Assembly (NCBI GenBank): GCA_019704295.1
Contig: AP024596.1
Coordinates: 1,408,001 to 1,472,000 of the forward strand
Source of the DNA: Sulfolobales archaeon HS-7
GTDB lineage: Archaea; Thermoproteota; Thermoprotei_A; Sulfolobales; Sulfolobaceae
Reading direction: 5' to 3'
Length of the DNA stretch: 64,000 nucleotides
The notes under the pieces: generated by a model
The model's input: only the letters and a program-made list of their open reading frames with translations
The model's database searches: none
What the model was told of the DNA's origin: nothing
Position numbers and translations under genes: made by a program
In this document: piece by piece, positions 4,570 to 58,596 of the stretch
How the letters are laid out: every line of letters begins with the position of its first letter
Position numbering within the stretch: position 1 is the stretch's first letter

Positions 4570-5979
4570 TTAGCTTATAATCCTTAAAATGACAGATATG
4601 AAATTGAGACTACGAGGTAGGAATCCCTCAATTATCTTAACGTCCTCTTCTGTGATTATCTTAAATATTTTGAAAATGGCAAGAACAGCTATTATTAGAA
4701 CGAAATCTAGGAAAAGAGGGTCAACTGCTACTTCGTAGAGGCCAATAAGCGGAATCATTGAGAGAACGCCGATTTCCTTCTTTCCTAGAGAGAAAGCAGA
4801 AGTTCTAATAGCGTAAAACAGCACAAAGAGAGAGGAGATTGTTGCTACTGTGATCTGAGATATAGCACCTCCCATTATTCCTATCCTAGGAATTAACAAA
4901 TAGGAAGTGAGTAATACAAGACCGCCGTTTAAAACTGACAGGATAAGAAAAGGTCTCAGATCCCTCTTAAATGCGACAATGAAATTAGTCAAGGAAGATA
5001 CGGAAAATGGAAGGGTTGATGAAATCAAAAGCAGAACGAAAACATCTAGTCCCGTCTTGTACGCCGGAAAGAAGCGGTCAATTACTATTTCGCCTATGGG
5101 AATAGAGACTATTACTGCAAGAAAAGTTATTAGTGATAGGACTCTAAAGGAAAGGGAGGACATCCTCTTCTCATCTTTCCCTAAAGCCTTGTAAAAAGAC
5201 GCTGTTGGCAACAAAACGCCGCTTAAGGCGCCTAAAACCATTGAAGGTACTCCGGCAACTAGAGCTGAAAATTGGTAAATGCCTAAGTAGTAAGAACCTA
5301 GTAAATAAGCTGTAGTTACTCTATCCCCTTGAGAAGAAAAGAAATTTGACGAAGAAGATAGGTAAAGAGGCAAACCTTCCCTGAAATGCTTAAAAAGAAA
5401 TGCGAAATGTGGAGAAGGGAAAATTACTCCAATTTTCCTGCTCAAGAAGGCATAGTTTATGGAAACTGAAAGCATTCCTCCTAAAGTCCAGATCTCAACG
5501 AATAGGTAAATGCTGTGAAAGAGGACGGCTATTATCGATATACCCCATCTTATGATTAGAAATAGGTTCCCCGTTATTGCTAATTCAGTGAACATGTCCA
5601 TCCCTATCATTATCACTGTCATTACGGCATTTAGAAGATAGAGGAAAAGGTAAGGTATTGCCAACTTAACGTAGTTCGGGAAAAGGAGAAGGACTAGGAG
5701 AATAGGAATGGTCATAAAGGGGAATGAAAGAAATTTTTCTACTATACCTTTATTTATCTCTTTATTAGCGTAAAGATAAGATATTTCTCTTGCGATTATT
5801 GCACCAGGGATTAGATAAAAAAAAGTCGATGTAATTACCTCCAGGAGTTGAATTATCGCGACTTTCCCGAAGAACGCCGGATTGGTAATTTTAGCGGTAA
5901 TGATGAAGAATATTAAGGCAACGATGACGTTAGTAGTGGTGACACTAAGGCTCTTCAGTGCATTCTTTATAGGGTTCAT
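4570..5979 (-). CDS. Oligosaccharide flippase (Wzx/MOP family)
   Basis: 12-14 hydrophobic helices; DRxxxxYLLGxxxLGIYQ and LIPRIGIMGGA motifs; glycosylation context. Confidence 0.88.
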   Translation of the reverse strand: MNPIKNALKSLSVTTTNVIVALIFFIITAKITNPAFFGKVAIIQLLEVITSTFFYLIPGAIIAREISYLYANKEINKGIVEKFLSFPFMTIPILLVLLLFPNYVKLAIPYLFLYLLNAVMTVIMIGMDMFTELAITGNLFLIIRWGISIIAVLFHSIYLFVEIWTLGGMLSVSINYAFLSRKIGVIFPSPHFAFLFKHFREGLPLYLSSSSNFFSSQGDRVTTAYLLGSYYLGIYQFSALVAGVPSMVLGALSGVLLPTASFYKALGKDEKRMSSLSFRVLSLITFLAVIVSIPIGEIVIDRFFPAYKTGLDVFVLLLISSTLPFSVSSLTNFIVAFKRDLRPFLILSVLNGGLVLLTSYLLIPRIGIMGGAISQITVATISSLFVLFYAIRTSAFSLGKKEIGVLSMIPLIGLYEVAVDPLFLDFVLIIAVLAIFKIFKIITEEDVKIIEGFLPRSLNFISVILRIIS

Positions 5980-13448: not shown

Positions 13449-15749
13449 CTAAATTAATTTTAGATTAAATAAGAGTTTTTTATTTTCTATAATTATGACT
13501 AGTATAATTAATACGATAAGCAAAATAGTATAAAAAATAACTAGTATGTCATTTAATGAACTGTAAACATAATCTAGCTTTATATTAGAATTAGTTATAA
13601 CTACGAAACTTTCATTGGAATATACAGGTATAACTTCGTTACTTCCACTTGTTTTTAAGAACCTATTCATATCTTCAATATAGCTATATCTAAATATTAT
13701 AGGAAATTCAAACTTCTTATCAGTATTCTTAGTAATAATGACTTGATTTGATCCAATTTGTTTTATTTTTAAGGAAGGTATATTCTTAACATAAATAACT
13801 GAAATATTCTTTGTAGTAAAAAATATAGAGTAGTTTGTAATACTATTTAGTACTTCTTTCTCATATTTTATTGATAATATTGCTGCTTCAGAATAATTCA
13901 CTCCAGTTATATTCAAGGATCTAGCTAGCAAATTTAGCTTATAGGGATACTCGCCTTGTGGCTGAGGACTCCAGAGAGGCCCTGAAATATTTACAAATAT
14001 AATATATCTAACCGGGCTAGCTTCCTCTTCGTCAGAAAAGTTATATACAATGATCTTACTATTATTAAATATAACTGGATACTTTTGTAAAATCTGTTCG
14101 AATTTATATATTTCTTGGGAAGTAGGATAGGGGTAAAAGTCGTGAGGGATCACATTTTTTGTTAGGATAATGTAGTTTATACCAAGTATTTTCGCTGCAT
14201 TTATAACTGGTTCTAGAGAGGAATTAGGGTTGATAGGATAAATGGTAATAAACCATTCTAGAGAGTTTTTATTATAAGGAAAATAGGAATTATAGACATC
14301 CCCCTTTATTAAGGTGCTCCAAAATCCAGCGCCTACATATTGATTGTTTTGGGAGAAATTATATGCTACATAAACTCCACTTGAAGGAAGAACTAAAATT
14401 TGTGGATTTATGTCGGGTCCTCTATCTACGACTTGAGCTACCTGGTAAAGATAGTTAGGAGGATTCCACGCCTCTGCCTTCGTTATAGAGCCGGTGTAAA
14501 AGGGGTATACCTGAGCAGCAACAATTAACAAAACACATATAATGATAATAATCTTTTTCGGCACATTTAATTTTATATTAACAAAGCTAACTGAAAGTGA
14601 CAGTGTAACACTAAGCACAATGAAAAATGTAAAAGATAACCAAGGTATGTCTAAACTCCATAGGTAAGGAGTATTAGCGTAGATTTGAATGTACTGGGGA
14701 TAAATGTAGGGCAATGCCAACCAAAGATCTAAAAGGAGAAACATGAAACAAGTTATTATTTTAAGTTTATTTGCTTTATAAAATATAAAATCAATAAAAA
14801 TTAATATCTGTATTAGTAAATTTGTATATATAAGAAAATCAGTATTATTATTAAAGAATGTATTCGGATAATACGTAAGAGTAAGTGCGTGAAATATATT
14901 ACCTTGGAATGAGTCGATATATGCTTTCAATACTGCCACATAATACCTTTTTCCAATACTGGAGGGAAATACGTTTAATGCCGATATATATGATGAGAGA
15001 TAACTGAAAACATTAAGAACAATTACTGTAATTACTGACATCATTAATATTTTAAGCTTGGATTTTATGTTTTGTTTTGAGATTAACATAAGTCCGAAAA
15101 AGAAGATGGCAACGACGAGATATGCTACAAGAACAAGGGTTAAAATAGAATCAACCGATATTACGAGCAGGATAGACGCTATAATAACCTTTAGTGATTT
15201 TGTTATAAAATTATAATTATCTATAAATACTGAATAAATAAAATATAGTACCCAAGGAAATAAAGCATGAAAAGGAATAAACGTGCTAGGAAGCAAAAGT
15301 ATATCATAATATAAATTAATTCCAGAATTAAAGAAAACCTCTGCCAAGATCACCAAACAAAAGAAGAACATGTTAGGTTTAGTAGAATTTCTAATTATGT
15401 TATCATACGCTATTAGGGAGATTGCAACGTTTCCGATAAGAGTGGTAATTAGCATACTAGTGATCTCATCGTATTTACCCAGGAATAGAAAAAACATTAA
15501 TGAAAAAATATCGATTATTACGTTGTTACTTATAGAGCCGCCGTTTACGTTTGTGAAGAATAACTGATAGTTGCAAAGGTAGTTAAAGCTTAAGGGGAAA
15601 ATATTATCGCCGTAACTATAAAATATATATCTATGATATAATATTATTATAGTAGCTAAGGATGATAATAATGCCGTAGCTAACACAAACACATATTTTC
15701 TAGTAAGATAAGTCGTTAGCGCCCTGGCACTTAGTGAAGGCATGAACAA
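13449..15749 (-). CDS. Large multi-pass membrane protein, possible GT-C/polymerase-type glycosylation enzyme
   Basis: About 12-13 N-terminal TM helices with an early YGD loop motif, extracellular C-terminal domain (LGINYIIL) and C-terminal TM anchor; very AT-rich. Confidence 0.65.
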   Translation of the reverse strand: MFMPSLSARALTTYLTRKYVFVLATALLSSLATIIILYHRYIFYSYGDNIFPLSFNYLCNYQLFFTNVNGGSISNNVIIDIFSLMFFLFLGKYDEITSMLITTLIGNVAISLIAYDNIIRNSTKPNMFFFCLVILAEVFFNSGINLYYDILLLPSTFIPFHALFPWVLYFIYSVFIDNYNFITKSLKVIIASILLVISVDSILTLVLVAYLVVAIFFFGLMLISKQNIKSKLKILMMSVITVIVLNVFSYLSSYISALNVFPSSIGKRYYVAVLKAYIDSFQGNIFHALTLTYYPNTFFNNNTDFLIYTNLLIQILIFIDFIFYKANKLKIITCFMFLLLDLWLALPYIYPQYIQIYANTPYLWSLDIPWLSFTFFIVLSVTLSLSVSFVNIKLNVPKKIIIIICVLLIVAAQVYPFYTGSITKAEAWNPPNYLYQVAQVVDRGPDINPQILVLPSSGVYVAYNFSQNNQYVGAGFWSTLIKGDVYNSYFPYNKNSLEWFITIYPINPNSSLEPVINAAKILGINYIILTKNVIPHDFYPYPTSQEIYKFEQILQKYPVIFNNSKIIVYNFSDEEEASPVRYIIFVNISGPLWSPQPQGEYPYKLNLLARSLNITGVNYSEAAILSIKYEKEVLNSITNYSIFFTTKNISVIYVKNIPSLKIKQIGSNQVIITKNTDKKFEFPIIFRYSYIEDMNRFLKTSGSNEVIPVYSNESFVVITNSNIKLDYVYSSLNDILVIFYTILLIVLIILVIIIENKKLLFNLKLI

Positions 15750-15787
15750 CTTATTAATTTTTTAGTAATAAGCATTTTTAGGGCTGA

Positions 15788-16672
15788 ATGGATATAGCGT
15801 CATGTATAGTCACTTATAATCCTGATTATGAACTCTTAGAATCAACATTACATAAATTGAAAACCTCGGGATGTGTGTCAATAGTAATTGATAATACTGG
15901 GACACATAATAAGAATATCGACTCCGATATATTAATTTATAATTACAAAAACTTCGGTTTAGGAAAGGCTTATAATCAGTGTCTGGAAATAGCAAAAAAA
16001 GATGGGTATGAGTGGCTATTATTATTAGATCAGGACTCAAGACTAAATGACCAATTTAATCCACATGAGCCAGTCCAGAAATTAGCAAAATACCAAGATT
16101 TTTACATAAAAACTGCAATACTTAGTATAAATAAAGATATTTCAACTAAAATCTTAAAATTAAATGATGACTTTTACTTAACTAAATACGTAGTAGGTAG
16201 CGGCTCGATGCTAGAAGTAAATAAGTGTTATTCGGACCCGTTTCTTGAAAACCTTTTTCTCTATAGTATTGACATAGAATATTCAGTTAGAATGAGAAAA
16301 AAGGGATATTTTCTACTTTCATATTCTAAACAGATGATAGATTACACCATGGGCCAAGAAATTAGGATGTTTAAAAGAAGGTTCAACACTCTAACATTTA
16401 AGATACTTAGCAAGTTGTTACATAAAGACTTAACTAGATACCCATATTATAAGAATACTAACAGGTATTATTTAATGCTAAGAAATGATCTATATTTGCT
16501 CCTGAGAAGAAAAGTAGACATTTCATATGTTAGATATATTCCTCTGTTGATAGCATATATAAATGAGACCGACGGATTTTTAAACGGAAATATCAAGGTC
16601 TTAAAGGCGGTTCTCCATTCCATTAAGGGAGATCTTGATAAAGATAACTTAGAAACAACAAGTGCACTTTAG
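15788..16672 (+). CDS. GT2 glycosyltransferase (rhamnosyltransferase-like)
   Basis: IVTYNP, IDN, NFGLGKAYN, LLDQDS, DIEYSVR, RYYLMLRN motifs. Confidence 0.88.
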   Translation: MDIASCIVTYNPDYELLESTLHKLKTSGCVSIVIDNTGTHNKNIDSDILIYNYKNFGLGKAYNQCLEIAKKDGYEWLLLLDQDSRLNDQFNPHEPVQKLAKYQDFYIKTAILSINKDISTKILKLNDDFYLTKYVVGSGSMLEVNKCYSDPFLENLFLYSIDIEYSVRMRKKGYFLLSYSKQMIDYTMGQEIRMFKRRFNTLTFKILSKLLHKDLTRYPYYKNTNRYYLMLRNDLYLLLRRKVDISYVRYIPLLIAYINETDGFLNGNIKVLKAVLHSIKGDLDKDNLETTSAL

Positions 16673-44703: not shown

Positions 44704-44908
44704 AAATAATTCTTCTATTTATTTTGATATTCACTTTTTATTTCATACAAGAATTCGGCAACCCCACGTAATACCAAAATATGTATAACAGAACATATAT
44801 TTTTAGACGTAAATTATCGACGGCAACCTCACGTAACCTCTAGGGAGAGCGAGATTGCCGAATTTGATACCGAAAAATTTATGAACGAGAAAGGACAAAA
44901 TAATGAGT
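44704..44908 (+). promoter_or_regulatory. CRISPR leader of array 2
   Basis: Inverted near-identical copy of 40410..40614; TATA-like box at ~44878; internal cggcaacc.cacgtaa repeats. Confidence 0.92.
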
Positions 44909-47900
44909 GTTTGTAGCTTTCCTATGAGGGCTTGAAACTAAGTACCGGCACCGATACTTTCACAGGATAGTATGGGTTTGTAGCTTTCCTATGAGGGCTT
45001 GAAACAGGTGTAGTGGTACTGTTGTACTCTGTGACCGTTATGTGTTTGTAGCTTTCCTATGAGGGCTTGAAACTGAAAGATGTGTGATATTGTAGAGGAG
45101 GATAGTCGGTTTGTAGCTTTCCTATGAGGGCTTGAAACATGTTCCTTGTCTAGAACGTAGTAAACTATATCGTTCGTTTGTAGCTTTCCTATGAGGGCTT
45201 GAAACCAGGAACGGGATTACTACTATTATTTTGAACAACAAGTTTGTAGCTTTCCTATGAGGGCTTGAAACTTTCAAATAGTTTCTTTATTATCTTCGGC
45301 TTATTTTCGTTTGTAGCTTTCCTATGAGGGCTTGAAACCGGTTTCAAGACATAGGATAATTATGAATATTATCGAATGTTTGTAGCTTTCCTATGAGGGC
45401 TTGAAACCCACATTACTGCTTTCTTCACTCAACTCTGCCAATAGTTTGTAGCTTTCCTATGAGGGCTTGAAACATTTTGCCCTCCCCCCTGGTACCTTCG
45501 GCAGCGTAAGTTTGTAGCTTTCCTATGAGGGCTTGAAACGGTTCATAAAGAAAAACGGAAAATTGGGGGCATTAAAGTTTGTAGCTTTCCTATGAGGGCT
45601 TGAAACTTCTATCACGATAGTCCTTATATTGTTCATCTGTAAGTTTGTAGCTTTCCTATGAGGGCTTGAAACAGTCCACAGTGTTCTTAGAAGTGCCTCT
45701 AACCCACGTTTGTAGCTTTCCTATGAGGGCTTGAAACAACTCTAAGTACTCATTCAATGGTAACTCTATTTCGGGTTTGTAGCTTTCCTATGAGGGCTTG
45801 AAACAGGTGAGAGGTACGAGTGATGTTCCGGACTGGGTCGGTTTGTAGCTTTCCTATGAGGGCTTGAAACTCACAAACCCCGCGTCCTTCCACAGATCTG
45901 CGTTCCACTGTTTGTAGCTTTCCTATGAGGGCTTGAAACGGTTAAGGGCGGTAGCCCTTATACAGCGAACGAATGGTTTGTAGCTTTCCTATGAGGGCTT
46001 GAAACTTTTTCCTAACAAGCCATGAGACCAAGTCCTCCTTGTTTGTAGCTTTCCTATGAGGGCTTGAAACAAAAAGTGAAAATTAAAATCTCTTTTATTG
46101 TGAAAAGTTTGTAGCTTTCCTATGAGGGCTTGAAACTAAATATAATGGATATCCTAAGTAGATGTTTTCATCAAGTTTGTAGCTTTCCTATGAGGGCTTG
46201 AAACCCAAAATAATACATGGGAATACTAGCATGGTGAAGGGTTTGTAGCTTTCCTATGAGGGCTTGAAACAATTTTCCAGGAGCCAGAACCAGCTCTGAA
46301 TATCTTGTTTGTAGCTTTCCTATGAGGGCTTGAAACAATTTTTCCGTAATCGTGAAGTTTTCACCCTGTACGGGGTTTGTAGCTTTCCTATGAGGGCTTG
46401 AAACCTATTTTGGGTCTCTGGGGAGGCTCTGCTGTTTCAAGGTTTGTAGCTTTCCTATGAGGGCTTGAAACTATATGAAACCAATTTCACGTTCATTTTC
46501 CTATAACCGTTTGTAGCTTTCCTATGAGGGCTTGAAACAAATTTTCTAAGTTTCACGAAACTGAGACAAATACAAAAGGTTTGTAGCTTTCCTATGAGGG
46601 CTTGAAACTAGATCTTCTTTAGTCCGTCAGCCTTACTATTTTTCGTTTGTAGCTTTCCTATGAGGGCTTGAAACTTCGCTATCGTGTGGATGTCTTTCGG
46701 CGTCGCCATGTGTTTGTAGCTTTCCTATGAGGGCTTGAAACTACCGTCCCTGTAGATACTCGTGAATGAATAGATCCAGTTTGTAGCTTTCCTATGAGGG
46801 CTTGAAACCTGGGGAGGCTGCCACACAATGAAACGTGTGAAATCGTTTGTAGCTTTCCTATGAGGGCTTGAAACCTGGGGAGGCTGCCACACAATGAAAC
46901 GTGTGAAATCGTTTGTAGCTTTCCTATGAGGGCTTGAAACTCTTCCTCCGAACTCTGAAGCGAATTGATTACTTCAGTTTGTAGCTTTCCTATGAGGGCT
47001 TGAAACTTCGCCGGGTCCCACCTCATCTTCAGCGATTTGAGGGTTTGTAGCTTTCCTATGAGGGCTTGAAACTAAAGTTACGTAAAAGCACGTAAAAGAC
47101 GTGTAACGTTTGTAGCTTTCCTATGAGGGCTTGAAACACTTTCAGAAAAGCATAAATATTTCCGATAACGTTTTGGTTTGTAGCTTTCCTATGAGGGCTT
47201 GAAACATTCGTTCAATTTCGGATACTAACTTCTCTCCTTCTGTTTGTAGCTTTCCTATGAGGGCTTGAAACGTGACATCTTTCAACCATCTGGAACGATC
47301 TCATCAGGTGGTTTGTAGCTTTCCTATGAGGGCTTGAAACTCATTTTCATCGAAAACAAAATACGCTTTCTTTTTCATTGTTTGTAGCTTTCCTATGAGG
47401 GCTTGAAACAACTAGGTGATGGAGTGAAGGAAAGGGATACGCTCTTGTTTGTAGCTTTCCTATGAGGGCTTGAAACAACGTTCAGCCTGCCACATTAGAT
47501 ATATAGCAGGAAATTGTTTGTAGCTTTCCTATGAGGGCTTGAAACCAAATCGGTGACTGATTTGGGTATATGACGCGATTCTGTTTGTAGCTTTCCTATG
47601 AGGGCTTGAAACTTACATATACCTTTCCAATGTAGTATTTTCTGTTCCAGTTTGTAGCTTTCCTATGAGGGCTTGAAACCTTTCGTTTTTCCCTAGTTGA
47701 CCGCACTCGAAATCGGTTTGTAGCTTTCCTATGAGGGCTTGAAACCATTCCGTTGTATAAGGGTCTGCCTAATCTCCTAAGAGCGTTTGTAGCTTTCCTA
47801 TGAGGGCTTGAAACCTAGAATTCTTTCCTCTATGTTGCCCCCTTCTTTTAGTTTGTAGCTTTCCTATGAGGGCTTGAAACTACATCCCGGGTAATGTGGG

Positions 47901-49547
47901 TTATCCCGGCAAAAATTAGTTTGTAGCTTTCCTATGAGGGCTTGAAACAAGTATGCCCTTATAATGTACGTTTCGCTATTCTCAGTTTGTAGCTTTCCTA
48001 TGAGGGCTTGAAACTTCCCGTTCAGGAAATCGCCCAGGGCTGTAAAATGGTTTGTAGCTTTCCTATGAGGGCTTGAAACCAGAACCAATTGGAGAGTGAG
48101 AATAATGAATGATATAGGTTTGTAGCTTTCCTATGAGGGCTTGAAACCAAATATTATCATATATTTCCCTGTATCCTTGTCAGTTTGTAGCTTTCCTATG
48201 AGGGCTTGAAACAATTTCACGGGAATTTTCATACCTAAACCGAACGGTTGTTTGTAGCTTTCCTATGAGGGCTTGAAACCTTCAGGTCAAAAATTGGGTG
48301 AATACCCGTTATGAGTTTGTAGCTTTCCTATGAGGGCTTGAAACCAGAACCAATTGGAGAGTGAGAATAATGAATGATATAGGTTTGTAGCTTTCCTATG
48401 AGGGCTTGAAACGTGGAGTTTTGGCAGTTATAGGTTTGGAATAGGTACTCCGTCTATGGGGTACCCTGGTGAACTTGAAACGTGGAGTTTTGGCAGTTAT
48501 AGGATTTTGGTATGACCGTTTGTAGCTTTCCTATGAGGGCTTGAAACCAGAACCAATTGGAGAGTGAGAATAATGAATGATATAGGTTTGTAGCTTTCCT
48601 ATGAGGGCTTGAAACCAAATATTATCATATATTTCCCTGTATCCTTGTCAGTTTGTAGCTTTCCTATGAGGGCTTGAAACAATTTCACGGGAATTTTCAT
48701 ACCTAAACCGAACGGTTGTTTGTAGCTTTCCTATGAGGGCTTGAAACCTTCAGGTCAAAAATTGGGTGAATACCCGTTATGAGTTTGTAGCTTTCCTATG
48801 AGGGCTTGAAACAAAAGTAGTCATATATTGATTGTCGGTCAAACCCATGTTTGTAGCTTTCCTATGAGGGCTTGAAACCCCGTACCCAGGTGTTGGGTTT
48901 TTGTTCAATCTCCTCGTTTGTAGCTTTCCTATGAGGGCTTGAAACAGATTAGCCCTAATCCTGCATGTCTGTTAGCGTGTGTTTGTAGCTTTCCTATGAG
49001 GGCTTGAAACCTACTGACACGAGAATGCAGAAGCTGGCTTTCCTGGGTTTGTAGCTTTCCTATGAGGGCTTGAAACCAGCACCAACAACTAACACGACTA
49101 TAGCAAGGACGAGTTTGTAGCTTTCCTATGAGGGCTTGAAACTCCATCCTCTTGTTATTAGTCCTTCTTTTGCCATTTCGCTGTTTGTAGCTTTCCTATG
49201 AGGGCTTGAAACACACGAATATAGTGGAGTTTACGGCACATGGGTATTTTGTTTGTAGCTTTCCTATGAGGGCTTGAAACCTAAAGGTGAACATGTATGC
49301 CACCGGGTGATGGATGTTTGTAGCTTTCCTATGAGGGCTTGAAACATCTGTCATTTCGCGATAAAAACGATAATAAAGTTAGTTTGTAGCTTTCCTATGA
49401 GGGCTTGAAACTTTCATCATACTGCAAAACTTTTCCTTCTTCTAACCTGTTTGTAGCTTTCCTATGAGGGCTTGAAACCTCTTCACTACTTCGATTAAAT
49501 GTGAATTTTTCACTTTTGTTTGTAGCTTTCCTATGAGGGCTTGAAAC
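44909..49547 (+). CRISPR. CRISPR array 2: ~70 30-bp repeats GTTTGTAGCTTTCCTATGAGGGCTTGAAAC
   Basis: Regular ~66-bp period; includes duplicated spacers and one anomalous 105-bp unit. Confidence 0.98.
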
Positions 49548-51177: not shown

Positions 51178-52092
51178 CTACTCGCCTTCATCAAATTGCA
51201 ATAGCGAACCCCATCCTAGCTTGCTTAGTTCCCCTAATTTCCTCTTTGCGTTAACCTTAAGAATAGCCCCAGGTAAAATCGCAGGATACATAGGTCTTCT
51301 GGCCCCGACCGACATGCTAAACCCCGTTCCTATTACCCCCAGCTTACCGCTCATCAGAATATCCTTTACTTCTACGTCGTCCACCTTAAGTTTAAGTACG
51401 TCGTCCAGTGATGTTATTCTCACGTTATCCGTTAAGGGAATAAGTGCGGGGGAAACCAGAACGGACTTACCTCCCCCCTTATTCAGGGAAAGAGATACCT
51501 CACTTACCTTTGCGACTCTTCCTTCCCCGCCTATCTCGATCACGCCGTCAAAACTAATGGGCATCTCCAGGTATATTCCCCACGTTTCCACCTCTTTGAA
51601 GTTCCTTATTACCGTAGCGTTTAGGTCCTCTAATTTCGAGCTGTAAAGCATATGTTCCTTAGAGCTTCCCCTACCCAAGTCCCTACCTATCCCTATCCTG
51701 TTGATCTCGGCAGGTTCTATTTTGATGGGGTTACCGTCCTCGTCTCTAGCCAACACTACTCTATCTTCCCTCTTTTCCAGCAACAGGAGCTTCCCCGGGA
51801 AATCGTGAACCATTATGAACTCACCCTTTTGCGTTTCCCTCTTCGCGTACACCCCCTTCACGTAGATCACAGGTCCCCACACGTCAACGAAGGTCTTCTC
51901 GAATTCTTGGATCTCGTTTTGCGGCGTCAGGGTTTTAATCCCCACGTACTTCCTGTAAATTGCGCCTAACACTGTGCTCACTAGGGGAAGAGGTTCCGAA
52001 ATCCCCTTATTCATGGGTCCGCTGAAGTTGGGAGAGTATTCCCCGTACCACCTGAAGAACACGGGTTCTATAGGCCTTATGAGCAGTCCCAT
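51178..52092 (-). CDS. cmr3: CRISPR type III-B Cas5-group subunit Cmr3
   Basis: N-terminal IRPIEPVFFR, PLxSTVLGA, IGGEGR, C-terminal LGWG; follows cas10. Confidence 0.92.
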   Translation of the reverse strand: MGLLIRPIEPVFFRWYGEYSPNFSGPMNKGISEPLPLVSTVLGAIYRKYVGIKTLTPQNEIQEFEKTFVDVWGPVIYVKGVYAKRETQKGEFIMVHDFPGKLLLLEKREDRVVLARDEDGNPIKIEPAEINRIGIGRDLGRGSSKEHMLYSSKLEDLNATVIRNFKEVETWGIYLEMPISFDGVIEIGGEGRVAKVSEVSLSLNKGGGKSVLVSPALIPLTDNVRITSLDDVLKLKVDDVEVKDILMSGKLGVIGTGFSMSVGARRPMYPAILPGAILKVNAKRKLGELSKLGWGSLLQFDEGE

Positions 52093-52095
52093 CCC

Positions 52096-54855
52096 TTACA
52101 CCTCCAATTGCTTAATGGCCTTGATGACCTCCGTTCTCTGATCCCTTTCCATTTGTCTTTTGTTTCGGTTTACGGGGTGATGATTGATGACCTCCGTTCT
52201 CTGATCCTCTTTTTTAGGGGAGGAGTTTGAAAAATCCATATCACGGCTCGCATCCTTTCTCTGATCCCATTTCTCCCCCTTCATCGTTATCGTCAGGTCC
52301 AGGGATACCAAATCCTGGTAAAGTCCCCTCAACTTAAGGTGAGGATCTCCGTTCCTTCGGAAAAGGTGAGCTATAGCGTCTTCAGGGAACTCCCTTATGA
52401 CCGTCACGTCAGTGGTTAACCAATCCTGTATAAAGCTAGACGTCAACTTCTTTTCCCTTCTCAGGGAGTCTAGGACGTCAAGGACTCTCAAGGAGAGCTT
52501 ACCGCCCTCCACCAGCGGATAGTTGTAGAGAATGGCCGCTTCCTCCCATTCAATTGCCCCCCTTCCCCTCAGCACCACAGTTACGTCCTTAGGTGAGCGA
52601 GTCTCCGAATTGATTTTGATTTCCAGGAAATCCTTTGTTTCCTCCAGGGAATGCGCAATTTCCCAAAGGTTATAGACTGCGTCCTTGTAGTGAGCTATGA
52701 GAACGCCGTAACTCCTACCGTATAAGGACAAAGCGTCCACTACCATCTCGTTAAATACGTGAAAACCTACGGGGGAACCCCAGTAGTTAGTCCTGGTTTC
52801 CTTAACTAGGTCGAGGGCTTCCTCAACGGGGGTAAGGAACATTACGTCGTCACCTCCAGCGAACACCAGAAATCCCTTTTTGCTTACTGTGGACGCGTCC
52901 TTCACCGCACTCAAGGCCAGAGCTCGAGAGATGGCTATGAGATATATTCCAGTCACCGGGATAACAGCACTCCTCTCTCCCTTGATGAAGTCGTCAGGAC
53001 CTAGGGAGAGATGTTTCATGAGGGATAACAGAGAGTTAAGCCTCCTTTCAATTTCCTCAGTAACACTCCCTCTCGTTTTCTCAATGTACACCTTTAGGGT
53101 CATTTCAATGCCTCCTCTCCAGACCTTCTTTCCTATGAAGTCCCCGTCCCCTCTCACTATAGCGTAGTATATTTTGATCTTCTTGGGTAATTCTCTCAAG
53201 AAATCATCGTCGTTTACGTTGCTGAATAACTCCTTGGCCTTTTTCGGTTCCCTGAGTATCGAGATAAAGGGCCTCTCCTCCCCAATGTAGAACAGGTAGC
53301 CCACGTCTTCGTATTCCTTAAGCGGTTTGGGAAGAGGTATCTTAACGTTGTCCTTTATTCCTACCTTACTCAAGACCTCCCTCCACAGGCTTAGGTTGGC
53401 TATATCTATCGTGGAGGGTATTACCTCAAAATCTTCCTCTACGTAGAAGCCCAATTCCTCCAATAGCTTCCTTTTATTGCTTTTCCCTAAAACCCTCTTA
53501 ATGTAGCAGTAAGCACAGAGCTCCTCCCTTTCGTCAAGGTTCTTATCCTCACCCCCATGTACGACTGAGGGTAGGATACCGCAAGACGTACACAGCGCGT
53601 ATTTTCCTCCTTCTTTAAAAAGGGCGTGCGTGTTCTTCCCAGCTTCCAACGCGTACGTTACACCGTAAAGTACTTTGACCGGGCTTTCCTTATTTACCTC
53701 TTTAATTAACCACTCCAAGAAGAGGGAATTAGATGGCTCAACTAAATCTGAACTCCCGCTCGTAAAACTCCCTACAGCCTCTCTGAAATCCTTAAACGCG
53801 TTATTCACGTCAATGACCTCAACCTTTATGGGCATTATGGGGAAATCCCTGATCCTCTCTCTAACGTCCGAATTGATGCACTTATCCACAAGAGTCTTCC
53901 AGGCGTTGCTGTAATTCTCCGTAATTTCCCTCTTAACGTCATCAGCCTTTTCGTAAACAGGAGGTAGTGCCAGCAGAATGGTTGCGGGCATTACGGGTTG
54001 GTATGGGGTGAGAATTTCGGAGGAGAAAAGGTTTCTGTACTTTTTCGCAACGTCCTTGGGAACTCCCTCCTCCATTTTCTTAATTACGGAGGAGATTAGG
54101 AACGGGTTAAGGCCTATGAAAGGCGAAATCATGATGTCAGCACCGTACTTGAAGATCAGGGGTTCAACCGTTCTGTATGCCAGGAAGGAGAGGGTCCAAC
54201 TGCCAGCCCACAGATCTGAGGCCCTTCTGGCCTTGCTTATCACCTGCTGAATGCCCGGTATGTCCACCTTAACTAGGTAGCCCTTGGGTTCATCCCCGTC
54301 AAGGAACCAATTTGAAAGAGTCGCCGTGCTGTAGAGGAGATCGAATAATGAGTAAGTGGGTGACCTTGGGTCGGCTACGGGAATTCCCTTAGGGTTATGC
54401 GAGTACCAAAGAAGTTCTAGAGACGTGTAAAGAGCGTTGTACCTGATCACGTCGTTCTCTATGCCTAGATATAGGTTTAAGGCGTCCTCGACGAAGCCAG
54501 GTACGTCCCTAGGTTCCTGTATATCGTACTTGTACAGGGGATTAAACATATTGAGTTTATACCTAGGGACTTGAACTTCCGCCTGGGGCGTCAAGAACTC
54601 ATCAGCGGACGTGGAGAATAGCCTAGCTACGTTCACTGTCCTCTCCAGTTTTGCAACGTCCGCCTTCCCTATGACCTTAGCTAGGGCGTATCCCTCAGAC
54701 TTCCCCAGCTCTCCCAAATCCTCATACGCGCTGCCAAGCCCCATCTTCGTCAAAACGTCTTTCACTATCCTCCTTTCCTCAATCCCCTTCAACCAAGGCC
54801 TCCACGGGGGTTCGTGAAGAAGCGCCAGGAACTTAACCTTTATTTCATTTACCAT
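52096..54855 (-). CDS. cmr2: Cas10/Cmr2 large subunit; GGDD intact, HD domain degenerate
   Basis: IQQVISKARRASDLWAGS Palm1 motif, CxxC..CxxC Zn site, RGDGDFIG, FAGGDDV; N-terminal LLHEPPW. Confidence 0.95.
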   Translation of the reverse strand: MVNEIKVKFLALLHEPPWRPWLKGIEERRIVKDVLTKMGLGSAYEDLGELGKSEGYALAKVIGKADVAKLERTVNVARLFSTSADEFLTPQAEVQVPRYKLNMFNPLYKYDIQEPRDVPGFVEDALNLYLGIENDVIRYNALYTSLELLWYSHNPKGIPVADPRSPTYSLFDLLYSTATLSNWFLDGDEPKGYLVKVDIPGIQQVISKARRASDLWAGSWTLSFLAYRTVEPLIFKYGADIMISPFIGLNPFLISSVIKKMEEGVPKDVAKKYRNLFSSEILTPYQPVMPATILLALPPVYEKADDVKREITENYSNAWKTLVDKCINSDVRERIRDFPIMPIKVEVIDVNNAFKDFREAVGSFTSGSSDLVEPSNSLFLEWLIKEVNKESPVKVLYGVTYALEAGKNTHALFKEGGKYALCTSCGILPSVVHGGEDKNLDEREELCAYCYIKRVLGKSNKRKLLEELGFYVEEDFEVIPSTIDIANLSLWREVLSKVGIKDNVKIPLPKPLKEYEDVGYLFYIGEERPFISILREPKKAKELFSNVNDDDFLRELPKKIKIYYAIVRGDGDFIGKKVWRGGIEMTLKVYIEKTRGSVTEEIERRLNSLLSLMKHLSLGPDDFIKGERSAVIPVTGIYLIAISRALALSAVKDASTVSKKGFLVFAGGDDVMFLTPVEEALDLVKETRTNYWGSPVGFHVFNEMVVDALSLYGRSYGVLIAHYKDAVYNLWEIAHSLEETKDFLEIKINSETRSPKDVTVVLRGRGAIEWEEAAILYNYPLVEGGKLSLRVLDVLDSLRREKKLTSSFIQDWLTTDVTVIREFPEDAIAHLFRRNGDPHLKLRGLYQDLVSLDLTITMKGEKWDQRKDASRDMDFSNSSPKKEDQRTEVINHHPVNRNKRQMERDQRTEVIKAIKQLEV

Positions 54856-55715
54856 AGTTTCACCCTGGATACCTCAATGTCCGCCCTTCCGTATCCCTTG
54901 CTTGTCCTACTGCCGATTCCCCTAGATAGGGAGTAAGTTAGCAGTAGAAAGGCCAGCTCTGCGGGTTTTTTAAGGTCGTAGTTGAAGACTGTTTTAGAAT
55001 ACCACTTTGCCTCCTCAGTAGGTTTCATCCCTATTATGAATCTAAACTTTACACCCCTCTTTACTGACAAACTGGTGATAGGATTTGGCACGACCTGCCA
55101 TTCGCTCTTCACCACTCTCCCATTACTGTAATAGTGTGGATTCACGATATCTCCCTCGAATAACTCCCCCTCACTCAACTCCACCGGATAAGCGTTTGAA
55201 ACTACGATTTCACCGACTTTACTCTGACTTTTTAGATCTTCTACTTTAAGGTACTCGAGGTCCTCCTTGTCGATAACGTCACCTGAGCCGAAGACTTTTA
55301 GTACGGATTCGACGCACCTTTTCCTCTCATTAACTTTCCTGCACAACTCTAATGCGTATGACCTCATGACTCCCTTAAGTGAGGAACCTGGTACAAAGGG
55401 CAAGTCCAGGACTGAGTCCCAGTGCATCCCGACCTCGGTGACGAGCTGAAGGAATCCCGACGCCGAACCGGTTAAAAGTCTAGATGTCAACACAGCTATT
55501 ACGTCACACCCGCTTAGCTTGAGGCCCTTAAAGGCAGTAACTACCTCGTCAAGGTAACTCCTGGCCAATTCCACGTTATTCTGGAAGTCGAAATCAAGCC
55601 CCTCATTAACTACCGTCTCCTTGATCTCTTTTCTCATGTCCTCCTTGCCAAGAGAACCCTTATACTTTTCCTTCACGGCAGATATTGAGGTAAGCATGAA
55701 GTTCCTTCCTTTCAT
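54849..55715 (-). CDS. cmr6: CRISPR type III-B RAMP Cmr6
   Basis: PFVPGSSLKG, DIVNPHY, PNPI, GIGSRTSKGYG. Confidence 0.95.
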   Translation of the reverse strand: MKGRNFMLTSISAVKEKYKGSLGKEDMRKEIKETVVNEGLDFDFQNNVELARSYLDEVVTAFKGLKLSGCDVIAVLTSRLLTGSASGFLQLVTEVGMHWDSVLDLPFVPGSSLKGVMRSYALELCRKVNERKRCVESVLKVFGSGDVIDKEDLEYLKVEDLKSQSKVGEIVVSNAYPVELSEGELFEGDIVNPHYYSNGRVVKSEWQVVPNPITSLSVKRGVKFRFIIGMKPTEEAKWYSKTVFNYDLKKPAELAFLLLTYSLSRGIGSRTSKGYGRADIEVSRVKLW

Positions 55716-57223
55716 ACTCGCCTACCCCCTCCGAAGCATTGAGTTGACTGATCCCTTTGTTCTTGTCCAGGTTTACAACACACGCCTATGTAGGCTTTGA
55801 CATACATCATGGCGTTATCCACTAATTTGCTAATACTAGTAATTTCTAAGTCGTCTCTAATCGGGATGAATATAGGCCCTCTCTTTTTATCATTTATCAG
55901 AAAGCCCTCAGATACCCCTTCCTCTTTGGGTGTCCCAGATACCTTCTCTTTGGGCACATTTGGTAGAAAAGTTAGGGCGTGAACGTTAAATCCGTTTTCG
56001 GCTTTACTCACATCTAATACAACGTAAGATTGTCTTCTCGCTATCTTCTTTTCCCCAAAGAAGATGTATCCTGTAATTTTAACATGAGGTCTTACCGCCC
56101 CCCTAGATTTATCTCCTTTCCCCAAATCAATTACATCACGCAGGCGTTCCCCTAATATCTTCTTTGCCTCTTCGATATTAGGTGTTCCTTTTCCACCCTT
56201 ACCCTCTCTGGGTAATCCTAAAACCCATGTGTCTAACTTATTACCACGCTTTTCCTGATATAATCCCTTCCACTCTGCCTTAAGGATGGCCCTTCCTATA
56301 CATTCTAAGGCATGCTCCACATTTCCTGAAACAAACCCTAATTTAACGCGACTGGTGTATACCGGAAAGGTATCTGAACGAGACAGTCTCTGGTGTAAGA
56401 GGTCCTGTGGGTCGACGCTTAACTCACTCCTGTCTAATCGCTCGAACCTCCCGAACCCTCTGTTGCCCCCCTGTCCAATTCCTAATCTAGATAATGTGAA
56501 CAGAGAGGATTTAACGAATTCCTCACCCAAGGTCTTTTCTTCCCTTTCCGCCATCACCTCCACTGTGATGGACACAGTACCTGGTCTCACAGGTAAAGCC
56601 TTTATAACATTCAACAAAGCGCTCTCTTGGGAACCCTGACGATACCAAATCCTAAGCAATTTTTCCACCTTGAGAAAAACTCTTGGAATACAGAATATTG
56701 ACAGGAAATCAAATCCTTGCTTTTCATCACAGAGACCTCTGAGGCTTCCCTCAACCTCCTTCATTTTCCTCTTTAGTTCATTCTCCTCATTCAGAGCGAG
56801 GTAAGTTACCTTTTTTCTCCCCCCGTGGCCTGTACTCGACTCCTTCTTTGCAGTTTCAGGCACGACGTCGTTCACGACCTCACCTGTCTTTAAGTCCACC
56901 TTTATAGGGCTACCAGTAATGCTAACGGTAACAGCTGACTTTCTCCTCTTCTTTGAGTCCCCCGTTATGCCTAATTTCTCTAGGAAATCGTCTCCCCTAA
57001 TAGTCCTCATGAACCAAACGGTCTTACCCATCAGGGATTTCGCATCAGGTAAATTGACGTATCCGTAATTCCCCTTTACTCTGATGACGTTACCGGAGAA
57101 ATCTCCTCCCCACCAGGGAGTGTAGTTGACGAAATTCCCCCTGAAGATTACTTCTTGTTTCGCGACTCCCTTTACCTTGTTTATCATGTTCCCTATGTCT
57201 GGATTATCACTCATTAGTGTCAC
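55712..57223 (-). CDS. cmr1: CRISPR type III-B RAMP Cmr1
   Basis: TPWWGG, GIGQGGNRGFG, LGLPR, RRQS motifs. Confidence 0.9.
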   Translation of the reverse strand: MTLMSDNPDIGNMINKVKGVAKQEVIFRGNFVNYTPWWGGDFSGNVIRVKGNYGYVNLPDAKSLMGKTVWFMRTIRGDDFLEKLGITGDSKKRRKSAVTVSITGSPIKVDLKTGEVVNDVVPETAKKESSTGHGGRKKVTYLALNEENELKRKMKEVEGSLRGLCDEKQGFDFLSIFCIPRVFLKVEKLLRIWYRQGSQESALLNVIKALPVRPGTVSITVEVMAEREEKTLGEEFVKSSLFTLSRLGIGQGGNRGFGRFERLDRSELSVDPQDLLHQRLSRSDTFPVYTSRVKLGFVSGNVEHALECIGRAILKAEWKGLYQEKRGNKLDTWVLGLPREGKGGKGTPNIEEAKKILGERLRDVIDLGKGDKSRGAVRPHVKITGYIFFGEKKIARRQSYVVLDVSKAENGFNVHALTFLPNVPKEKVSGTPKEEGVSEGFLINDKKRGPIFIPIRDDLEITSISKLVDNAMMYVKAYIGVCCKPGQEQRDQSTQCFGGGRRV

Positions 57224-57683
57224 CCTGCGGCGTGAGCATTTCGCTAAGTTCCTTGACTCTTATGATCGGCGTGAGTATCTTCTTCTCTATTTTCACTTCC
57301 CGCTCCTCAATGCTCCTTATGCACTCTAAGATCAAATCCTCCCTGATTTCGTCACCACCACAACTTTCCACCTCCATACTGTTCAAGATGTAGAAAAGGG
57401 AACCGATAAACGCCGAATAGCCCTTATTGCTCTCCCCTTCCATGTCACTACATATCTTTTTGTCTTCAACCCTCGGAGATTCCGCTCTCCAATAATCGTA
57501 ATAGTACCCGATATCGGAGATCTTCCCCTTTGATAAGTAGAAAATCATGGCACCTACAAGACCTCCCTGCAGCATCAATGATGGGAAGTCCCTTGCTCTT
57601 CTCGTAAATCCTTTAATTCCCTCATCCCCGCACTTCCTCTTGACTTGGTATAACTTCTTAGCAATGTCTATAGCCAAATCCAA
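57207..57683 (-). CDS. cmr5: CRISPR type III-B small subunit Cmr5
   Basis: RARDFPSLMLQGGLVGAMIFYLSK motif; position after cmr4. Confidence 0.92.
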   Translation of the reverse strand: MDLAIDIAKKLYQVKRKCGDEGIKGFTRRARDFPSLMLQGGLVGAMIFYLSKGKISDIGYYYDYWRAESPRVEDKKICSDMEGESNKGYSAFIGSLFYILNSMEVESCGGDEIREDLILECIRSIEEREVKIEKKILTPIIRVKELSEMLTPQGDTNE

Positions 57684-57687
57684 GTTC

Positions 57688-58596
57688 TCACTCTCTAAGC
57701 AAGGAGACCTTAATAACGCCCCTTCCGATTGTCTCCTTACCGCCCAAGTTCATGTAAAATGAGTTGCCCGACTCACTTCCCGTCGCCATCTTAAGGAACT
57801 CCTTATATTGGTTGGCGAAACAGTTATCACTGCAGATCTCCTCATGGTTCCTACAGTACTTATTGACCTTAGGAAGGGAAGGCACGAGTAGTCCGAACAT
57901 TATCGTTCCTTGCGGTAAGTACTCCTCCGTCCACAATCCTCCCTCATTCGTGGTCTTCGTACTCAGGTTTATTTTATTCCTGGTCATCCTGATGTAAGCC
58001 CTCTCCAAGATCTCCGAACCCTCGTCGTCCTCTAAGACGGTAATACCGTCATTGATCTTCTCACTAAGCTTGCCCAGTCCCGTAAACATAGTCGGATTTT
58101 CGATCTTTATTAGCGGTTTCTTCAATCCCGCCACGTCGACTTCTCCGCTGGAATTTCCGTAGAACTTTTTGATTGCGGAACGTAAGCTCTCGTTGCTTGT
58201 GAGTTCCAACAGGTCCGTAACCCTGCTGATTAGGTACCGCGACGTTCCGTAAATGTACCCGTGAGTGTTACTCGGAATGGGAACTAGTAAGGGTATCAAA
58301 TCGGTCACGCTTATTACCCCACTACCCGTCTCGTCTCCCTTCTCAGGTCCGAAAAGACAACAGCATATTCCAGCCTTCTCGCAATTGATCCTTCCATCTT
58401 CGAGTGGAGAGTTGTAAAGAGTAGCACAGAACGATTTCAACGCTCCCTTAAAGGATGAGGCGTAAACTACAGGGTAGTTAAACGGATCCCTTTGCACAGG
58501 AAGATCCACAGCTCCCCCGCTCCTCCCAGCTCCTACGTGAAGTGGAGTTATTGCGTAAATAAGTATTACGTCAACCTTCTCCTTAGGGACAGACAT
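57688..58596 (-). CDS. cmr4: CRISPR type III-B RAMP Cmr4 (catalytic Asp present)
   Basis: TPLHVGAG..VDLPVQRD, SSFKGAL, LWTEEYLP, LGGKETIGRG. Confidence 0.96.
   Translation of the reverse strand: MSVPKEKVDVILIYAITPLHVGAGRSGGAVDLPVQRDPFNYPVVYASSFKGALKSFCATLYNSPLEDGRINCEKAGICCCLFGPEKGDETGSGVISVTDLIPLLVPIPSNTHGYIYGTSRYLISRVTDLLELTSNESLRSAIKKFYGNSSGEVDVAGLKKPLIKIENPTMFTGLGKLSEKINDGITVLEDDEGSEILERAYIRMTRNKINLSTKTTNEGGLWTEEYLPQGTIMFGLLVPSLPKVNKYCRNHEEICSDNCFANQYKEFLKMATGSESGNSFYMNLGGKETIGRGVIKVSLLRE

Follow-up and report, generated by a model that had tools for sequence, protein, structure and literature searches.

Probable off-register spacer integration about 21 bp into 30-nucleotide CRISPR repeats: a scar in a Sulfolobales array and its recurrence elsewhere

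How did one unit of an otherwise invariant CRISPR array come to hold an inter-repeat segment of 105 nt, in which the border between repeat and spacer occurs twice? The unit lies in a 64,000-nt stretch of the Sulfolobales archaeon HS-7 genome (AP024596.1, positions 1,408,001 to 1,472,000), which is referred to as the window. The array (44909–49547, + strand) consists of 69 identical 30-nt repeats and 68 spacers. All four HS-7 arrays have the 30-nt repeat and a conserved leader in common; the leader of this one, at least 120 nt long (44789–44908, + strand) and near-identical before all four, fixes the + strand as the repeat orientation. Since the leader is at 44.9 kb, the anomalous unit is number 53 of 68.

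Geometry of unit 53 and its setting

The anomalous segment (48413–48517), 135 nt for the whole unit, is bounded by an intact repeat on either side (48383–48412 and 48518–48547, both + strand). The original prediction described an exact 30-bp duplication around a 39-bp insert, and this is what we find: 48405–48434 is identical to 48474–48503, and the insert, termed B, occupies 48435–48473 (all + strand). The duplicated 30 bp comprise the last 8 nt of the repeat and the first 22 nt of a spacer, termed A, and their length equals that of the repeat. The match is maximal, with neither side extendable; because the measured length is that of a maximal match, the true duplication may be 29 nt with a 40-nt insert. 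Spacer A itself is complete (48482–48517, + strand, 36 nt) with just 8 nt of repeat ahead of it. Excising one copy together with the insert restores a normal spacer, as had been claimed, 36 nt being the modal length in the HS-7 genome (46 of 134 unique spacers; range 34–40 nt, 39 nt or more in 13%). Insert B, the putative new spacer, falls inside the same range.

In a genome-wide tally of exact direct repeats of at least 18 nt at offsets of 25–200, with ordinary repeat-to-repeat matches excluded, the duplication in unit 53 was the sole direct repeat of 29–31 nt flanking an insert of 34–40 nt. With a geometry unique in the genome, it is not a product of chance. Neither B nor the restored spacer A has a second copy in the 2,151,177-bp genome (GC 39.6%). 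The source of B was not found: exact 22-mers of B had no match in IMG/VR, those of A were absent from the metagenomes and IMG/VR searched, and blastn against phage and plasmid collections gave chance matches only (E 0.9–4).

The event sits in a rearranged block (48050–48812, + strand) with the spacer order X Y Z W X A* X Y Z W, in which a 295-nt segment is present twice and spacer X three times. The block is probably the result of later recombination, and its order would fit a history in which A* was lost from between two copies of X and an unequal crossover then took place; alternatively, it may reflect mixed alleles in the assembly. Two spacers, at 49143–49182 of the window and at G000:C1:1488187–1488221 in a different array, have 20 nt in common and probably derive from overlapping sites of one invader.

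The machinery for spacer acquisition is encoded outside the window. The only cas1 found in HS-7 lies at 1.490–1.496 Mb of the genome (G000), together with cas4, a cas8b-like gene, cas7, cas5 and cas6, and cas2 and cas3 are located at 1.481–1.484 Mb, 7–10 kb away on the opposite strand; cas1 (I-B model) and cas2 scored above the model cut-off, the cas4 match below it. This type I-B Cas1 (L002 8448–9398) has close homologues in 6 of 46 genomes of the family, and the next matches are mostly bacterial with less than 50% identity. A direct repeat with 29 of 34 positions identical and a 66-bp period was observed at the end of cas1 (G000:C1:1491370–1491469).

The duplication in unit 53 very probably arose by off-register full-site integration, catalysed by Cas1-Cas2 at a cryptic site that lies some 21 bp inside the repeat. 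Reading together what is directly seen, that is the geometry, the recurrence of the shift at 20–22 bp and the sum of 30 described below, and the presence of cas1, cas2 and cas4, we infer Cas1-Cas2 as the agent. A type I-B Cas1-Cas2 complex, possibly with Cas4, would dock with a normal-sized prespacer about 22 bp downstream of the repeat start, and the two strand transfers would take place 30 bp apart, on the top strand between positions 22 and 23 of the repeat and on the bottom strand between positions 22 and 23 of spacer A. Gap repair would then leave a copy of the 30 bp separating the two cuts on each side of the 39-bp insert. The original prediction held the integration to be leader-independent, but the present position does not date the event, because growth of the array moves any first-unit event inward: a slip at the leader while A was the newest spacer would have left the identical sequence.

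The consequences for the crRNA can be predicted from general Cas6 behaviour. The 8 nt that open the second copy are an orphan repeat end that, in folding calculations, lacks the repeat hairpin, so the unit should yield one long crRNA, uncut by Cas6 at the orphan end, whose guide would open with the initial 22 nt of A and continue into B. For the cell, one memory would thus probably be damaged and another wasted, with A partly crippled and B mostly of no use.

Recurrence at a shift of 20–22 bp and alternative origins

One duplication cannot tell integration from template switching, and for this reason recurrence was looked for. Including HS-7, which is the discovery case, we identified five independent events, all in 30-nt repeats of the same family, one of them in Sulfodiicoccus acidiphilus and three in metagenomes. 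The S. acidiphilus event (G010, L014 19581–19742), which came to light among related Sulfolobales I-B arrays, has 9 nt of repeat and 21 nt of spacer duplicated, 30 in all, around a 36-nt insert, and the Cas1 of this organism is 75–76% identical to that of HS-7. One metagenomic event, identical in three separate assemblies (L025, L036, L037), has 10+20=30 around 35 nt, another (L035), which adjoins cmr genes, has 9+22=31 around 36 nt, and the third (L040, 1384–1533) has 11+21=32 around 34 nt. The maximal-match lengths of the four are thus 30, 30, 31 and 32, and the sums of 31 and 32 fit a true value of 30 with chance extension.

Two regularities emerge from the five events. First, every shift lies at 20–22 bp, with none at the 4–19 bp that the search pattern permitted; five shifts within a window three positions wide have P of ~0.001 under a uniform distribution from 4 to 23. 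Second, in the events free of chance extension (8+22, 9+21 and 10+20) both ends move together, and such covarying ends with a fixed sum are as a 30-bp ruler predicts. In a simple likelihood comparison, a model with the sum fixed at 30 reached −8.8 log10 units, a model with a fixed 8-nt crRNA handle −11.8, and a model with independent ends −14.2, so that the fixed sum is favoured by about 3 and about 5 log10 units, respectively. The slip of 20–22 bases therefore appears to be a natural mistake that the spacer-inserting enzyme makes repeatedly, and no one-off accident. Of the original prediction, the off-register Cas1-Cas2 reading is supported; it took the event for a single fossil and overlooked that the shift recurs.

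The metagenomic events come from a scan of genome and metagenome collections with a pattern that admitted right shifts of 4–23 and unit lengths of 55–85. The scan returned 21 loci, five of which have a common spacer prefix and represent the three events. The other 16, with 0–1 nt in common, were rejected as deletions, partial repeat duplications, variant repeats or assembly gaps. Sensitivity of the scan is partial by design. Its genome-contig part gave two matches, both without a common spacer prefix, and missed the S. acidiphilus event, which the pattern fits, so that it gives no rate. Units of 30-nt arrays numbered 1,178 and contained two events including HS-7, too few for a rate difference from the 24–26-nt arrays of Sulfolobaceae, in whose ~6,100 units no border-straddling event was found and one event lies within a spacer; no convincing small-shift event was seen. 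Among 60 genomes there was no relative with the HS-7 repeat, nor was a relative with spacer A found; the loci examined held no uninterrupted allele of the four other events, the inserts of the three metagenomic events had no IMG/VR match, and neither a protospacer nor a PAM was found for any event tested.

The within-spacer event is located in a 24-nt-repeat array (L127, ~15572–15790) of the genome G007, which may be Sulfurisphaera tokodaii str. 7. An exact 24-bp duplication surrounds 39 nt and lies wholly inside a spacer: the 169-nt 'spacer' holds three copies of a 24-nt stretch from a 43-nt spacer, and between them the same 39-nt insert twice. This is a within-spacer integration that was later tandemly duplicated, like a nascent mini-array, and in this one case the duplication length follows the local repeat. 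A repeat-length ruler in off-register Cas1-Cas2 integration, as originally proposed, is thus supported by the four further events, by their covarying ends and by the 24 bp of this array.

These observations bear on the other routes by which unit 53 might have formed. In replication template switching or microhomology recombination, a polymerase that had replicated 22 nt of A would have continued on a foreign template for 39 nt before rejoining the array 30 nt upstream. The surrounding array region is indeed rearranged, a 10-nt word of the A/B junction recurs at the neighbouring junction of X and repeat, and the HS-7 target lacks the integrase anchor motifs discussed below, all of which could be read in favour of such a route. 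It does not predict, however, that repeat-length duplications and spacer-length inserts with covarying ends should occur five times, or that the duplication should measure 24 bp in a 24-nt-repeat array, and we consider it unlikely.

Another view would be that unit 53 holds two related adjacent spacers, a 39-nt A' and the 36-nt A with 22 nt in common, split by a heavily degenerate or foreign repeat that kept its last 8 nt. Set against the first 22 nt of the repeat, the final 22 nt of B agree at 10 positions, a level that 6 of 134 spacers reach, and the gapped local score is attained by just 2 of 134. Such a repeat would need 12 substitutions in an array whose repeats are otherwise invariant, plus an unrelated 22-nt coincidence; furthermore, the pseudo-repeat folds unlike the repeat (z of 0.24 against −2.64), and the four other events have the same geometry. 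This makes a decayed repeat very improbable.

The repeat part of exactly 8 nt in HS-7 could also point to a crRNA 5' end, handle plus 22 nt of spacer, that was reverse-transcribed and returned to the array, 8 nt being the usual length of the handle left by Cas6. The repeat parts of the other events measure 9–11 nt and trade off against the spacer part, and the fixed-8 model, which corresponds to this origin, is the one that trails the fixed sum by about 3 log10 units. An RVT_1 (PF00078) query gave no match in the HS-7 genome, and acquisition by an RT-Cas1 finds no counterpart there, Cas1 being a stand-alone protein of 311–316 aa. As reverse transcription also leaves B unexplained, we regard it as hardly credible. 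An assembly artefact is just as implausible: although the unit lies within a repetitive, block-duplicated stretch, HS-7 is an isolate whose genome was assembled with Unicycler from 301-bp and 150-bp Illumina reads plus Nanopore reads (runs DRR286851-3; PMC8459659), the 135-nt unit fits within a single MiSeq read, an assembler would not be expected to invent the unique B, and one analogous event is identical in three assemblies.

Site preference and relation to known integration

In the event-bearing repeats, the 3' part best resembles the 5' start at a shift of 20 or 21, with 5–6 of 9–10 positions matching. This self-similarity peak fits four of the five events, e.g. the repeat peaking at 20 carries the 10+20 event and the S. 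acidiphilus repeat, peaking at 21, the 9+21 event. In HS-7, the repeat interior at 48396–48412 (+ strand) resembles the leader-repeat junction at 11 of 17 positions when the cut is placed at 21|22, a single base away from where the boundary actually lies; this level is reached at 0.08% of genomic sites, for a stretch that was picked after the fact. In L040, the clearest case, the target spacer contains the 9-nt core of the repeat in register at shift 21 (12 of 21 matches; 0 of 291 ordinary spacers score as high), and this core coincides in part with the location of the anchor motifs in the Haloarcula hispanica type I-B system (PMC4872114).

HS-7 itself is the weakest fit of the events. Its target is a weak mimic of the repeat, with 10 of 30 matches overall and 7 of 22 in the spacer part, the latter equalled or exceeded by 37% of ordinary spacers, and the boundary lies one base past the best mimic at 21|22. 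The H. hispanica anchor motifs (repeat positions 11–15 and 18–22; PMC4872114) are out of register in this target, which moreover has C as its first base and G as its last, opposite to the G...C preference reported for Pyrococcus furiosus (PMC6698737). The offset may be due to a one-base slip at 22, to a 29-bp duplication, or to a shift of 21 followed by a G-to-A change, three origins that leave indistinguishable sequences.

Judging from these resemblances, the site may be chosen by the likeness of the last 9–10 nt of the repeat to its first 9–10 nt and to the leader junction, and the distance of 21 bp, corresponding to two helical turns, perhaps aids the choice. On balance we favour a broader interpretation, in which 30-nt repeats of the I-B/III family hold a cryptic docking site about 21 bp past the true one that Cas1-Cas2 reuses in nature, in archaea and in metagenomic hosts, leaving systematic, unannotated scars of mis-integration. 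A repeat of a different HS-7 array is missing its final 9 nt (G000:C1:1487796–1487889; L002 ~5797–5890) and has normal spacers on either side; it breaks at the same position, 21|22, which would be explained by a deletion or by a short duplication of 21 bp.

Experiments have already demonstrated off-target integration; what is new here is a common hot spot, resting on five events, and each event is a mistake made by established machinery rather than a new system. In vitro, P. furiosus Cas1-Cas2 attacks non-CRISPR targets at paired positions separated by 30 bp (Grainy et al. 2019, PMC6698737), and off-target integration in E. coli creates neo-CRISPR arrays in vivo (Nivala et al. 2018, as cited in 10.1101/148544, PMC7054753). 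The events described here resemble these full-site integrations in the spacer-sized insert, the attack sites one repeat length apart and the non-canonical site. They differ in that the scars are natural, fixed in wild genomes and placed at the repeat-spacer border inside an array, and in that the shift recurs at 20–22 bp in unrelated hosts.

A parallel in terms of cut-site choice is H. hispanica, likewise type I-B with a 30-nt repeat, in which the cuts are set by mid-repeat motifs of the kind seen in register in L040. With engineered repeats in that organism the leader-side cut stays fixed and the duplication length varies between 29 and 33 bp (Wang et al. 2016, PMC4872114), whereas in the events of the HS-7 type both cuts move by ~21 bp and the length stays at 30. 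A joint cut shift with the length kept, i.e. the behaviour of a ruler, has been described for E. coli type I-E with non-cognate Cas proteins, as discussed in PMC4872114; there the shift is 2 bp toward the leader, compared with ~21 bp into the array here.

New spacers away from the leader-proximal site are also known from locus E of Sulfolobus solfataricus, where acquisition occurs in register at internal repeats (Erdmann and Garrett 2012, PMC3468723) and shows integration within an array to be possible in Sulfolobales, and from type II-A leader-anchor mutants with ectopic in-register acquisition (as cited in PMC5224486). In these cases an entire repeat is duplicated and the resulting units work, in contrast to HS-7, where 8 nt of repeat are duplicated out of register and the unit is chimeric. 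No report of a recurrent natural shift of ~21 bp was found in the literature searched, which consisted mostly of papers available without subscription.

The way in which Cas1-Cas2 locates the ends of the repeat in the absence of IHF-like helpers is still under study, mainly on engineered substrates. Natural scars in which the 30-bp spacing is preserved in one wrong register reveal features that are read in vivo, namely the repeat ends, the mid-repeat core and possibly the helical phase, and they predict a minor paired peak at +20 to +22 in vitro. If the cryptic-site interpretation is true, the scars map both the ruler and the site preference of the integrase in vivo. Array callers probably log a unit of this kind as a single long spacer or as a repeat that has degenerated, so the scars may be undercounted. 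All five events are internal in their arrays today.

Several features of the surrounding defence loci were recorded alongside. The array adjoins a type III-B cmr operon (51178–58596, − strand), in which Cmr2, Cmr4, Cmr5 and Cmr6 score above the cut-off and Cmr3 is weak. A KwaA-like anti-phage gene, below the model cut-off, is located between a lone repeat at G000 1484008 and an array (L002 3733–4320, − strand). At the 3' end of cmr2 (window 52121–52267), an exact 24-nt repeat recurs 63 nt apart with a third, degenerate copy, and being in frame it gives a repeated peptide near the C-terminus; it is probably a coding repeat, though its 24+39 geometry resembles that of a scar.
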